Part shown: positions 42,001-51,000 of the stretch, piece after piece
How the letters are laid out: each line of letters opens with the position of its first letter
Position numbering within the stretch: position 1 is the stretch's first letter
NCBI RefSeq assembly: GCF_055900595.2
Contig: NZ_CM148325.1
DNA: 64,000 bases
Reading direction: 5' to 3' (one strand)
Made by a program: the position numbers

Positions 42001-45000
42001 ACAGCAGCCACGCGTATTCCTTATCCCACGGAGTCACAGAATTATAATCTTGGTGCACGTCTTGACTGGAAGGCGTCGGCGCAGGATGTGCTCTGGTTTG
42101 ATATGGATACCACCCGGCAGCGTTATGATAACCGGGATGGGCAACTGGGGAGTCTGACGGGGGGATATGACCGGACCCTGCGCTATGAGCGAAACAAAAT
42201 TTCAGCTGGCTATGATCATACTTTCACCTTCGGAACATGGAAATCGTATCTGAACTGGAACGAGACAGAAAATAAAGGTCGTGAGCTCGTACGCAGTGTA
42301 CTGAAGCGCGACAAATGGGGGCTTGCCGGTCAGCCGCGGGAGCTTAAGGAATCGAACCTTATCCTGAATTCATTACTGCTTACCCCTCTGGGAGAATCTC
42401 ATCTGGTTACGGTGGGGGGCGAGTTTCAGAGCTCGTCCATGAAAGACGGAGTTGTCCTTGCCAGCACAGGTGAAACTTTCCGGCAGAAAAGCTGGTCGGT
42501 ATTTGCTGAGGATGAGTGGCATCTCACGGATGCACTTGCGCTGACTGTGGGCAGCCGCTATGAACATCATGAGCAATTCGGGGGACACTTCAGTCCGCGT
42601 GCATATCTGGTCTGGGATGTGGCAGATGCCTGGACGCTGAAAGGCGGTGTGACCACGGGATATAAGGCACCCAGAATGGGGCAGCTACATAAAGGGATTA
42701 GTGGTGTATCCGGGCAGGGAAAAACAAATCTACTTGGTAACCCCGACCTGAAGCCGGAAGAGAGCGTCAGTTATGAGGCTGGGGTGTATTACGATAACCC
42801 CGCCGGTCTGAATGCCAATGTCACAGGTTTTATGACTGACTTCTCCAACAAGATTGTCTCTTATTCCATAAATGATAACACCAATAGCTATGTAAACAGC
42901 GGAAAGGCCCGGTTGCATGGTGTGGAATTTGCCGGCACATTGCCGCTGTGGTCAGAGGATGTCACGCTGTCACTGAATTACACCTGGACCCGAAGTGAAC
43001 AACGTGATGGTGATAACAAAGGTGCGCCGCTGAGTTATACCCCTGAACACATGGTGAATGCGAAACTGAACTGGCAGATCACCGAAGAGGTGGCATCATG
43101 GCTGGGTGCCCGTTATCGCGGGAAAACACCACGTTTCACCCAGAATTATTCGTCACTGAGCGCTGTACAGAAGAAAGTGTATGATGAGAAAGGAGAATAC
43201 CTGAAAGCTTGGACGGTGGTGGATGCAGGTCTGTCGTGGAAGATGACGGATGCCCTGACGCTGAATGCTGCGGTGAATAACCTGCTCAACAAGGATTACA
43301 GTGACGTGAGCCTGTACAGTGCCGGTAAGAGTACGCTGTATGCCGGTGATTACTTCCAGACGGGATCATCAACAACAGGATATGTGATACCTGAGCGAAA
43401 TTACTGGATGTCGCTGAACTATCAGTTCTGATAATAACAAAACGCTATCACTGACGGTAGAATACGTTGCCACTGTAACTCCTGGCGGAACAGTGGCAAC
43501 GTATTAGGTTAAGTGCATTTCCGATCCGCTAATGAGATTTCGTTACCAACAACTAATATCGTCACAGGAAATGCACGGATTATTTTTAACTTATCATTTA
43601 CATACTTGTCCAGAGTGTAAGCGCACCGTGAAGGACGTGGGGTAAAAATTAGTGTACAGAGAGAGTGACGTTCCAGGGCAACAACTCTTTCATGCGGTTG
43701 GCAGGCCAGGTGTTGATTACACTGATCACGTGGCGTAGCCACGTTTCCGGCTCGATTCCGTTAAGTTTTGCAGCTACCGATCAGGCTGTACATCACTGCC
43801 GCACTATCGCTCGTCATCTCAAAGTCCGGTCTCGTCAGCAGGAAGGTATCATTCTCTCCCGCCATTTTTCCGGGGGCCCGGTCAGATAAGTCCCTTTGTC
43901 TATCGCTGACTCCTGGCTCATAACCCGGTTAGCAGAATGCAGGGTCACCACCTCGCCACGACCGAATCCGGATAAGTCAATTGCACCTTCTCAATCGCCA
44001 TTTTGTCACAATTAAGTTTGATAAATCATGTCACCTCTGCACTGAATCTGCTCCAGTGCCTCATTGGTCTCCGTCCACCCCTTTAAACTGCCGGATAAGA
44101 CTGCTGCACAGCGCCTTCCCCGGAATCAAATCACTTTCCCTGTCCGCCACAATCCGCTTCATGCCACCTCGTATTTTGTTTCAGAGACCGGAATCTGCCA
44201 GAAAGTGACTACGCGTGCACATATCGGTTTTCTGGGTTACATGCATCGTGTTATTTTCTGAAATGCAAAATAATAAAAAACAAGGACACATAATGAAGGA
44301 TGAAATACACAGTACCAGCATCAACCCGGATGTTGTTGAGCAGTTTCTGGCCCTTATGAACACACATTGTAAATCCTCAGAAGAGGCGCTCGCCATGCTG
44401 AGTACGCTTTGTTACAACCTGATGGTGACATGCGGTATCCATTCCATGGACAGCCAGATGCTCAATGGGCATGGGATATCCATGCAACTTCAGGGGATTG
44501 ATATTGCCGAAAGGCCAGGTAAGAATATTCACTAACCTGAACAGGGTCTGAAAACGCTGTCTTTTCAGGCCTCTGCAGGCAAAAACTGATGACAACAAAA
44601 TTTCTGCGTTTGTACCCCACCGATGAAAAAGACAAAAACTCACACCGGGCTTCTAGCCAGTAAAGATAAAACCCGACGTGTCAGCCTCTACGAAACGCCA
44701 ACGGCATGGTGTATCAGGGGGCAGGAGTGCTACAGCAAAAGTACAGGACGCCGCTGTGGCAGCCACGACAGTCTGAGCAGACTGCGCCTGGACAGCATTA
44801 AGCCTGTTGAATGAGTGGTGGCACCATGAAAGATAACAGCACAACCGCCACCCCAGAAGCCTGGAAAATGCGTTTTCTGGCCAACGGGACATCCGGCACA
44901 TGGTTTTACACTGACGACATTACAGTCACTGACGCGTGGCTTCGCGCGCACCCGGATGATGTGGAGGTTATCCCTCTCTGCCGGATACCACCCCGTCAGC

Positions 45001-48000: not shown

Positions 48001-51000
48001 TGATACTTGTCGTGTACAGAGTGCCATGACAGCCTGACGTTTGACTTCTGGTTCAAAGGGCGCAACCGGGTTGGCCTTACTGGTAAATATACGTCGTCTG
48101 TCGGGATAAAGTTCATTAACCCAGCGAGCGAGTACATCAGTGCAGGGATAACCCAGGGCTCTGCTGGTAAACGCCAGGCAGCAGCCGTGGTTAAGATAAT
48201 GTTCAACGGCAACCTGTTTTTGCTCATCGGAGTAACGGTGCTTATGACGAATGGATTCTTTTGCGCCACCACCTGCTTCCCATGAGCGGATCCAACGCCG
48301 CAGATTTCTTTTCGAAGGGTAGCCCAGTTCGCGTACGACGGGAGCCAGCTTCTTACCATATTTGAAATAAAGCTCAATGGCGCGGATTTTTTCTTCTTCA
48401 GTAAACATGTTTTATCTCCTGAGAGTCCAGGAAATCGTCCGCATCCCCCAACGAGCTGCTGTTTAAATTCGGGAGGATAATTAGGGCAGCCTTTTCGCCT
48501 GCCGGGAGTCACATTTTTCTGCATATCTGACACTTTGGTTCCCACTACTTATTTGGTGGACACCACTTTGTCTAATTCGTCAGATTCTGACCAGACGGTT
48601 CAGGCTGTACGCTTACAGTTGTTCAGGAGTAATAGTCCAAAGTATCGGGAATTTTCCAGACAATCCTGATAATACGCTTATGAACATTACAACACGCTCA
48701 TGCGGAACCTGGATGGGGGAAGGAACGGTGAAGCTGTTAGCGAATGACTGGCGTTTGTATAAACGCCGGTCATGATGAATGATATTTCAGAATATACCTC
48801 GGGCTAAAATACCGGGACAGAGATCAGGCATGATTAATCTGCAGCATTTTTAATAACAGAAGTACTGAGCTTACTTTACCTTTGATGATGGAATAGTTAT
48901 TTCCGTCGGTACTCATTTTTCCCTGAAATAATGTCACGGATGTTTCTTCCTGCTGATCCTGCAGGCGCAGTCGTAAGGTCATATTTTTAATGAGCTGAGA
49001 TCCGGGTGGCAAGGGGTATTTGCTGTCAGATACTGGGCGACTGAGTCTGATGTGGCGCGTATACAGCCCGTTTTCGTACAGGGTGGCCTCTGTTATGGTG
49101 TCAGTGACCAGCATGTGGGAGACAATGCTGTATTCTTTTTTAAAGCACCCACCAGAAACGGTGATTGTAATGATAATGGTCTTCTCGATCGAGATGTAAA
49201 TACCCGTTTCGTTATACTGTCCGTATCGGAACCATGAGAACTCAGTTTGAGGTGTACTGGCAATAGCGGACACAACCATTTGTTCTTTTTTTAAGCAGCT
49301 ATCTGATGATATTTTTCCCTGAAGGCTGCCGGGGAGATATTCCCCAGACGAGAGTGACGACGCTGACGATTGTAGAAAATCTCAATGTATTCCCGTATTA
49401 CTGAGATGGCTTCATCCCGGTTATTAAAACGATAGTGGCTCAGGCTCTCATTTTTCAGCGTTCCCCAGAAGCTTTCCATCGGAGCGTTGTCGTAACAGTT
49501 ACCTTTACGCGACATTGATGTTTTCAGACCAAACTGCTCCTGTATGACCCGGTAATCGTATGCGCAGTACTGTGAACCTCGATCAGAGTGGTGGATTAGC
49601 CCGGCAGGTGGGCGCTGGCTCCTGAGCGCCATAAACAGGGCTTTACCTGTCAGCTCTTTTGTCATGCGCTCTCCCATGGCGTAGCCGACAATTTCGCACG
49701 TATAAACATCTTTGATGCCAGCGAGGTACAACCATCCCTCCTGTGTGGCAACATACGTCAGGTCCGCCACCCAGACCTGATTTGGTGCTGTAGGAGCGAA
49801 CGTCTGGTTCAGCAGATTTGGCGCAACTGGCAGATTGTGGTTCGAGTTCGTAGTCGCTCTGAACTTGCGTTTCTGCTTACAGCGTAGCCTTAGCTCCTTA
49901 CGAAGACGTGCCAGTCGGTCACGACCAACGATGATGCCATTCTCTGCCAGCTCCGTCTGGAGCCGCCGGGTTCCATATGTTTCGCGAGTGCGGATATGTG
50001 CCACCTTAATCTCCAGTTTTAGCCGCTCATCACTTTGTTTTCTGTCTGAGGGTTCATGCTGTACCCAGTTGTAATAACCGCTCCTGGATACACCAAATAC
50101 CTGACACATCGCTTCAATGGGAAATTGTTGTCGCCATTGTTCGATTAACGCGTATTTTTCAGCGACTCCTGTGCAAAATACGCGGTTGTAGATTCAATCT
50201 GTCAATGCAACACCCCTTTCAATTATCTCTTTCGGTGTTTTGAACTTCAGTGTCTTTCTCGGTCTGTTGTTTAGCTGAGCAGCAACCAGATCTAGTTCAT
50301 GTTGAGTATATTGGGCAAGACATGTCTTTTTAGGAAAGTACTGCCGAATTAGCCCATTTGTGTTCTCATTTGTTCCCCGCTGCCAAGGACTCTGAGGATC
50401 GCAGAAGTAAACTTTAACGCCGGTGCTGACAGTAAATTCTAGATGTCTGGCCAGTTCCATTCCTCTGTCCCATGTCAGTGATTTTCTGAGTTCTGACGGT
50501 AAACTCAGGAATTTGTCGGTAAGAGCCTGATTTACTGAGACAGAATCTTTGCCCCTGAGTCTAAGGATGATCGTATAACGTGATTTTCGGTCTACAAGTG
50601 TGTAACCGGCTCATTTAAACCGTCTGGTCTGTTTCCTCCGGCTCTACAAAAATAATGTCCATCATTTTTAATGGACACTATCGTATGAAACACCGGACCT
50701 GGATCACTGAAGCTTTACGTCTTCACTTTGAAGAACATTTACCCCGGGTTGTGGCCGGGCGTCGCCTGGGTGTACCAAAATCAACAGTTTGTAGTATGTT
50801 CGTGCGCTTTCGGAGAGCTGGCCTTTCGTGGCCTTTGCCCGCAGGCATGTCGGAGCAGGAACTTGATGCCTGCCTTTACGGACAATTTTCCACGGTACCA
50901 GTCGTACGTCCTGAAAGCACCGTTATATCCGAAGCCCCCGTGGTAAAAAAACGTCCCCGGCGGCCCAACTTCCCTTATGAGTTTAAAATCGCCTTAGTGG

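Follow-up and report, generated by a model that had tools for sequence, protein, structure and literature searches.

The DNA between iha and sat in the window (the whole stretch analysed, 64,000 nucleotides of contig NZ_CM148325.1, assembly GCF_055900595.2) is ordinary genomic scar tissue: insertion sequences that are dead, a few small plasmid-type genes that are intact, and the middle third of a gene for an accessory lactate transporter (Table 1). We put at roughly 85% the probability that this interval is a non-functional spacer, eroded stepwise, that separates the iha module from the sat-aerobactin module in a pathogenicity island of the pheV type. The features are real and non-functional, and have already been annotated. 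Specifically, the contents of the interval are known as such from hundreds of E. coli genomes, and the RefSeq annotation carries the same pseudogenes. Only the small open reading frames (ORFs) are likely still to code for anything.

Table 1. Features between iha and sat, with positions in the window.
Feature	Positions	Strand	Details
Hairpin, perfect 16-bp stem	43461..43505	+	inverted repeat I6, 100% complementary, 13-nt loop
IS66-family right-end remnant	43617..43810 (194 bp)	-	terminal repeat GTAAGCGCACCG... and tnpC tail; stops abruptly at 43810
DUF2235-domain gene remnant, heavily decayed	43800..44225	-	about residues 115-346 of 563; several stops, frameshifts, internal deletion
Five small uninterrupted ORFs (ORF1-5)	44293-44535, 44623-44814, 44826-45194, 45198-45413, 45410-45682	+	
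Winged-helix (HTH_39 / 'ECs1377 family') gene, 3' remnant	45642..45815	-	residues 139-197 of 207; 5' part missing
ISEc45-like IS110-family transposase gene, internal fragment	45990..46332 (343 bp)	-	codons 178-292 of 377
LctP permease, internal fragment	46333..46843	+	residues 97-266 of 518; no internal stops
IS3-family element, IS150 group, complete	46844..48450 (1,607 bp)	-	inverted repeats TGGGG(G)ATGCGGACGATTTCCT
IS66-family left-end remnant	48451..48616 (166 bp)	-	terminal repeat GTAAGCGTACAGCC... ending at 48616; first ~25 codons of small HTH ORF

An earlier note had named four features here: an IS66 remnant, an IS110-type transposase, a permease piece and an IS150-like element. All four are present, with matches far beyond chance. 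As a description of the whole interval, its term 'IS graveyard' overlooked positions 43811-45989 (~2.2 kb, 44% of the interval), which are neither IS66 nor any other insertion sequence and hold the decayed DUF2235 gene remnant, the five small intact ORFs and the winged-helix gene remnant.

The permease piece is cut at both ends, as had been proposed, and aligns to the lactate permease family (Pfam Lactate_perm, PF02652; E 6.6e-50, profile positions 94-258 of 522). With TIGR00795 it scores 169.6 bits, below the whole-protein cutoff of 341 because just one third of the protein is present. Start codon, promoter and 3' part are all missing from the fragment, which is not a full-length transporter (about 518-560 aa). 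A 67-codon ORF with an ATG start lies within it (46663-46866).

The label 'LldP/GlcA-like' holds for the Pfam/TIGR family, which the fragment shares with both proteins, but not for E. coli lldP or glcA, to whose products it is only 37-39% identical (38.7% to LldP and 37.3% to GlcA of K-12). In contrast, it is 98.2% identical to a plasmid LctP, and 93-98% across the LctP proteins of the lctP-lutABC operon. Family membership would also fit the host's own lldP or glcA, captured from the chromosome while insertion sequences assembled the virulence block, as the earlier note had suggested, but these identities refute such an origin. Furthermore, the fragment scores 107.7 and 100.8 bits with the NCBIfam equivalogs for LldP and GlcA, whose cutoffs are 918 and 1,121, and the precursor states have the lctP-lutABC operon in the same place. 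We give capture of a resident metabolic gene almost no credence. Judging from its sequence, the piece derives from lctP-lutABC, a mobile accessory lactate-utilisation operon.

This lctP(lutP)-lutABC operon is intact in strain S19-651, at the homologous position beside iha and the small-ORF block, and also on STEC plasmids including pO113; the mobile element was therefore already carrying lctP, which then eroded in situ. Compared with the intact operon, the window keeps just LctP residues 97-266 and has lost lutA, lutB and lutC. An accessory region with lutABC, lutP and hsdMSR near tRNA-Phe has been described (PMC9769692). The dN/dS ratio of the fragment against intact alleles is 0.03-0.06, which indicates that its divergence is older than its inactivation. 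A large protein search for the lctP allele of the window in intact form gave truncated forms only, and one of these (P0001) led to an intermediate state in which the IS3 element interrupts the gene (lctP::IS3).

Comparison with other genomes places these states in order. S19-651 is collinear with the window over 40852-46332 at 99.2% identity, whereas its lctP is just 91.8% identical to the fragment; this strain is therefore a relative of the ancestor rather than the ancestral form itself. The intermediate state is found in contig L018, VR50 and 81 complete genomes, where lctP is cut after codon 266 by the same IS3 element as in the window. These genomes contain a 1,974-bp segment, and the DNA on its two sides is 99.7% and 99.4% identical to the window. 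The 46332/46333 junction of the window is a blunt deletion of these 1,974 bp, from the interior of the IS110 gene to lctP codon 96/97, with no microhomology. Of the 5,426 complete genomes searched, 614 carry exactly this junction, among them strains labelled ST131, ST69, Nissle 1917, ABU 83972 and clone D, the sequence types being those of the strain labels only. A synthetic 480-nt probe was used to search the 5,426 genomes for the two expected parental junctions, in which the IS3 element would run into lctP from codon 267 or would lie inside an otherwise complete IS66; no genome covered either.

The comparison shows an ancestral-type arrangement that runs from iha through the IS66 end, the DUF2235 remnant, the small ORFs, a 3'-truncated IS110 gene and small fragments to an intact lctP-lutABC. 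In the next state, the IS150-group IS3 element lies after lctP codon 266, with the downstream 3' part of lctP and lutABC replaced by the IS66 left end leading into IS600/IS30, sat and iutA-iucDCBA. This right-hand junction may have arisen through recombination between two IS3 copies or through an IS-promoted adjacent deletion. Subsequently, the blunt deletion took away the 5' half of IS110 and two small fragments, together with the promoter and codons 1-96 of lctP, joining IS110 codon 178 to lctP codon 97, and the IS3 copy acquired a second nonsense codon. Horizontal transfer of the island then probably carried the scar into unrelated lineages (ST131, ST73, ST69 and others). IS activity did destroy the permease gene, as had been suggested: the 3' break falls exactly at the IS3 inverted repeat (46843/46844). 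The 5' break coincides with no IS terminus.

The IS3-family element had been described as IS150-like with broken frames. Its IS150-group membership stands, but the element is complete. Two in-frame nonsense codons (W154* and E346*), with no frameshifts, inactivate its one transposase frame of 510 codons. The copy in VR50 carries W154* only. The element ends in 27-nt TG...CA inverted repeats and aligns collinearly, with no indel, to intact copies (97.7-97.9% identity). Its transposase matches HTH_Tnp_1, HTH_21 and rve/rve_2/rve_3 (Pfam) and NF033516 (NCBIfam). The likeness to IS150 lies in these HTH and rve domains, the TG...CA repeats and a catalytic region 43% identical to InsK, versus 29% for IS600 and 26% for IS2. 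However, IS150 is 1,443 bp long with two frames joined by programmed frameshifting, and its terminal repeats are unrelated to those found here. No programmed -1 frameshift architecture was found, intact relatives of the 1,607-bp element carrying one continuous ORF for a 510-aa protein. Neither 3- nor 4-bp target-site duplication is present (flanks AAT versus ACG), and the DNA of the two flanks is unrelated, coming from lctP and from IS66.

The IS110 fragment corresponds to nt 534-877 of a 1,134-nt ISEc45-like transposase gene (95% identity). Its C-terminal Transposase_20 domain (PF02371) is matched at E 3.9e-20 (profile positions 6-69 of 87), and NCBIfam transpos_IS110 (NF033542) over positions 223-288 of 343. 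The internal stop reported earlier replaces W218, and a 1-bp deletion accompanies it. Despite its likeness to ISEc45, a piece of 343 bp cannot encode a transposase: the N-terminal DEDD catalytic domain, the C-terminus and a complete ORF are all lacking.

The IS66 terminus had been located correctly, with GTAAGCG starting at 43617. Positions 43617-43810 are 96.4% identical to the tnpC-proximal ends of intact IS66-family elements in contigs L007 and L010 (E ~1e-82). A tnpC remnant is indeed present (residues 467-518 by tblastn, ~52 codons with one frameshift), but it is truncated at 43810 rather than decayed. With tnpA, tnpB and tnpC queries from two IS66 elements, tblastn detected no more IS66 genes beyond 43810. 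We considered the DNA beyond this point as decayed IS66 and ruled this out, the sequence being the DUF2235 remnant. A further GTAAGCG motif, at 45881 where the IncI homology fades out, resembles an IS66 end but differs from the genuine terminal repeats, and we regard it as a chance occurrence. At the other side, the IS3 element stops at 48450, not at 48550, and interrupts an IS66-family left end (48451-48616) that is 100% identical to L007 6294-6461 and begins a small HTH ORF, the intact L007 version of which matches Pfam HTH_Tnp_1.

Both pieces come from the same IS66 species (L007 3502-6461), with the GTAAGCG terminal inverted repeat at 43617 (+) and 48616 (-) matching the two ends of the intact L007 element. 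An intact IS66-family element (ISCro1-like) lies at 50602-53300, inserted in IS30 with an 8-bp target duplication. Two ends in the correct relative orientation, in a window where intact IS66-family elements such as this one are active, could indicate that 43617-48616 is a cargo-carrying composite between outward-facing ends, mobilisable in trans by IS66 transposase. This is very unlikely: no 8-bp target-site duplication surrounds the unit (flanks TCCAGAGT versus AGTTGTTC), one end is 96.4% and the other 100% identical to the reference, iha in O157 (OI-43/48) and other contexts is linked to the left end without the right end, the right boundary in S19-651 is a different IS66 species, and the unit is not seen elsewhere on its own. 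The two pieces are IS66 remnants, not an element. Although they share 96-100% nucleotide identity with intact copies on E. coli virulence plasmids and islands, these mere 194-bp and 166-bp fragments leave tnpA, tnpB and tnpC incomplete (just tnpC codons 467-518 plus the ~25 codons of the small upstream ORF) and are unable to encode transposase.

In the overlooked non-IS segment, the DUF2235 remnant is 77.7% identical in nucleotides to plasmid DUF2235 genes (tblastn E 3e-14, with in-frame stops), and the winged-helix remnant is 67% identical to an IncI plasmid protein (tblastn E 8e-18), the intact form of which matches Pfam HTH_39. The five ORFs fall within a 1.73-kb block (44135-45864) common to IncI-type plasmid backbones, with 93.8% identity to the IncI plasmid L005 and a 72% homologue on pO113. 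ORF2-4 have dN/dS of 0.07-0.16 at dS > 1, and on such ratios the small ORFs are under purifying selection. They match PHROGs of unknown function, and a weak ANR match aside, Pfam, NCBIfam and PHROGs gave no informative family; the same searches gave none for an ORF at 48824-49279. Large protein searches with ORF3 and ORF5 returned E. coli-type hypothetical proteins only, and some homologues of these two ORFs bear the spurious name 'neurotensin receptor R8'. ORF5 reaches 25.3 bits with the ANR profile NF033650 (cutoff 32), all 11 of its 11 homologues match this profile at E <= 0.01 (best 2e-7), and it is 35% identical over 49 aa to an annotated ANR (AraC negative regulator) protein (E 6e-4). 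These matches weakly suggest that ORF5 is ANR-family-like.

That the remnants are retained for a function, whether as a peptide from the truncated permease, as a regulatory RNA or as a promoter for neighbouring genes, is extremely unlikely. The sequence is nearly invariant (at least 99%) across hundreds of genomes and the 67-codon ORF lies inside the permease fragment, but recent common descent of the island explains the invariance, which flanking intergenic DNA and dead IS copies share equally. The lctP fragment has neither start codon nor promoter and lacks about two thirds of the transporter. An Rfam scan of 43300-49400 gave one chance-level match only and no RNA family in the interval. Furthermore, the region tolerates new IS insertions (IS1, ISEc10, ISCro1, ISEc23) and deletion of the whole block. 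The hairpin at the left edge lies directly 3' of the stop codon of iha (41341-43431) and is likely the iha terminator.

The spacer reading agrees with the known architecture of GI-pheV, in which modules are separated by insertion sequences and whole modules can be deleted (PMC11537424). The window has the same order as the GI-pheV / PAI-CFT073-pheV type island (intP4.1 GI-pheV) of uropathogenic E. coli, namely nan module, iha, IS-rich spacer, sat and iutA-iucDCBA-shiF, and GI-pheV strains such as S65EC, clone D i14 and ABU 83972 are 100% identical to it over 6.5 kb. Nothing essential differs from this type; the window adds the ISCro1-like IS66 element in IS30.

In itself, the scar matters little. 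The 46332/46333 junction together with W154*/E346* is nevertheless a precise, dated scar that could mark lineages when the spread of the iha-sat-aerobactin part of GI-pheV among ExPEC clones is traced. The island formerly carried a lactate-utilisation operon, since lost, and it is at the spacer repeats that modules are lost, new IS copies insert, and plasmid and chromosome exchange DNA. The five-ORF block (44293-45682), which IncI-type plasmids, pO113 and pheV islands have in common, may be the only part of the interval still alive, although we consider this unlikely: a small mobile module with selected ORF2-4 and an ORF5 resembling ANR-type anti-activators, with a regulatory or plasmid-establishment role and acting as a homology patch. 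If so, island DNA (spacer, sat, aerobactin and pap remnants) could cross through this patch onto a conjugative IncI-type plasmid, a crossing of which the recombinant pE2022-9 suggests an example.

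The window belongs to a pathogenicity island of the pheV type found in extraintestinal E. coli. Many complete genomes match the segment 43000-49500 with 100% identity (for example, S65EC, clone D i14 and ABU 83972), and coverage of the segment reaches 80% or more in 593 genomes. The gene order in matching genomes, according to RefSeq annotation, is nan genes, IS3, iha, the spacer examined here (43617-48550), IS600/IS30, sat and iutA-iucDCBA. This island, GI-pheV, is on record as a mosaic of IS-separated modules with deletions at module level (PMC11537424), and the pseudogenes of the spacer were annotated previously by the NCBI pipeline. 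Our reconstruction contributes detail, namely which operon the permease fragment came from, in what order the events took place and precisely where the scar lies; the element kinds themselves are not new.

Features of the iha-sat region (window positions)
Feature	Position	Strand	Remarks
iha	41341-43431		
IS66-family remnant	43617-43810		96.4% identity to tnpC end of intact IS66-family elements
DUF2235-domain gene remnant	43800-44225	minus	badly decayed
Five small intact ORFs (ORF1-ORF5)	44293-45682	plus	common to IncI-type plasmids; diverged form on pO113
Winged-helix gene 3' remnant	45642-45815	minus	
IS110 piece	45990-46332		Transposase_20, E 3.9e-20
IS3-family element	46844-48450		complete; 27-nt TG...CA repeats
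IS66-family left end	48451-48616		broken into by IS3-family element
151-aa hypothetical ORF	48824-49279	minus	between IS66 left end and IS600 remnant
ISCro1-like IS66-family element	50602-53300		intact tnpA, tnpB, tnpC; inside IS30 transposase gene
sat	54649-58536	minus	intact

A permease fragment that the earlier note had likened to LldP or GlcA does align to lactate permeases (46333-46843; Lactate_perm, E 6.6e-50) and corresponds to residues 97-266 of a 518-aa LctP. Its identity to K-12 GlcA and LldP is 37-39%, compared with 98.2%, 97.6% and 92.9% to the LctP proteins whose genes precede lutABC on a STEC plasmid, the S19-651 chromosome and the STEC plasmid pO113, respectively. Strain S19-651 carries, in order, iha, an IS66 end, the small ORFs, IS110, small fragments, an intact lctP-lutABC operon and type I restriction genes, and is collinear with window positions 40852-46332 at 99.2% identity. 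This lutABC/lutP/hsdMSR accessory region, close to tRNA-Phe, is known from ST127 and other lineages (PMC9769692). Differences between the fragment and intact alleles are nearly all synonymous (dN/dS 0.03-0.06), and therefore the fragment was under selection until shortly before breakage. Because the S19-651 allele diverges from the fragment by 8%, this strain is a relative of the ancestor and not the ancestor itself.

An intermediate state is represented by P0001, a truncated protein from a large database in which LctP residues 1-266 are followed by read-through into the IS3 repeat. The underlying arrangement, iha ... IS110 (832 nt) ... lctP codons 1-266 joined to the same IS3 element ... sat-iutA, was found in the contig of P0001 (L018), strain VR50 and 81 complete genomes. 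Compared with L018, the window has undergone a single clean 1,974-bp deletion, with flanks 99.7% and 99.4% identical and microhomology absent from the junction. The IS3 copy of VR50 has the stop W154* only, and that of the window has both W154* and E346*. The 3' part of lctP and lutABC may have been lost by recombination between two IS3 copies or by an IS-promoted adjacent deletion, since the element lacks a target duplication and its two flanks, lctP and IS66 sequence, are unrelated to each other. A synthetic probe found neither of the two parental IS3 junctions in the complete-genome collection.

All four features that the earlier note named in its IS graveyard are present; almost half of the interval, overlooked there, is non-IS DNA. 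The IS66 terminus was placed exactly, at 43617, and the decayed tnpC reported with it amounts to residues 467-518 only, with one frameshift; this remnant and the left end derive from one IS66 species. The internal stop of the IS110-type transposase was borne out as W218*, accompanied by a 1-bp deletion, in a piece that aligns with nt 534-877 of an ISEc45-like transposase gene at 95% identity. The supposedly broken frames of the IS3-family element are instead one unbroken frame with two nonsense codons, given that it aligns without indels (97.7-97.9% identity) to intact copies encoding a single 510-aa transposase. Its 'IS150-like' label holds at subgroup level only, the catalytic part being 43% identical to IS150 InsK versus 29% for IS600 and 26% for IS2.

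The uropathogenic island shares a 3.2-kb cassette (40852-44008), made up of iha, the IS66 end remnant and ~200 bp of DUF2235 remnant, at 99.3% identity with the tellurite-resistance island of O157:H7 (L006, EDL933 OI-43/48); in the latter island the cassette adjoins a truncated terF-like gene. The DUF2235 remnant (Tle1-like hydrolase) is without RefSeq annotation; intact homologues on STEC plasmids adjoin a DUF2931 gene, close to an ANR-family gene (comparison sequence L020).

Positions 44135-45864 are 93.8% identical to an IncI-type plasmid backbone block, located there beside the hok/gef (pnd) locus, and contain the five small ORFs, which are uninterrupted and called by RefSeq as well. Homologues are frequently mis-named 'neurotensin receptor R8'. 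ORF2-4 exhibit dN/dS values of 0.07-0.16 at dS > 1 relative to their diverged pO113 homologues and are therefore real genes; they are under purifying selection. ORF5, with a ~68-aa conserved core and a variable tail, weakly resembles ANR-family small regulators, scoring below the curated cutoff. The 151-aa ORF, kept in all related islands and in plasmid pE2022-9, has no family match in Pfam, NCBIfam or PHROG. No RNA family was detected in the interval, the lctP and IS fragments cannot yield a working protein and, small ORFs aside, we found no reason to assign the interval a function.

The spacer continues to change. Additional IS1, ISEc10, ISCro1 or ISEc23 insertions lie within it in other genomes, and LR-58-2 (L004) has a clean deletion of everything from 45742 through sat-iuc, the IS fragments and the whole aerobactin cluster included. 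At the resulting 45741/45742 join, the small-ORF block is followed immediately by a 'TOTE primase' pseudogene fragment and the DUF417 gene. The window's ISCro1-like element has an 8-bp target duplication (ACAAGTGT) and is missing from S65EC, clone D i14 and pE2022-9, indicating recent, strain-specific transposition. An ISEc52 insertion splits iha in the related genome IPCEC48 (L001, locus 3089-6432); thus, IS activity inactivates island virulence genes too.

The pE2022-9 record (L013/L021, NZ_OR345929.1) describes a 60.9-kb IncI-type conjugative plasmid (MOBP, MPF_I) whose cargo is ~30 kb of GI-pheV, including a shiF-like MFS gene and iutA-iucDCBA. Its small-ORF block carries the IncI allele up to ~45495 and the island allele beyond, through the spacer, sat, aerobactin genes and pap remnants, with the backbone-island crossover within the block at ~45495-45535. 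This record may reflect true recombination between plasmid and chromosome, or else an artefact of the assembly or the laboratory.

The 46332/46333 junction, searched with a 160-bp probe at full coverage, is present in 614 of 5,426 complete genomes, and the interval form is shared with strains labelled ST131, ST69 (both assignments being strain labels), Nissle 1917, ABU 83972 and clone D. This distribution implies that the block had decayed already when it spread.
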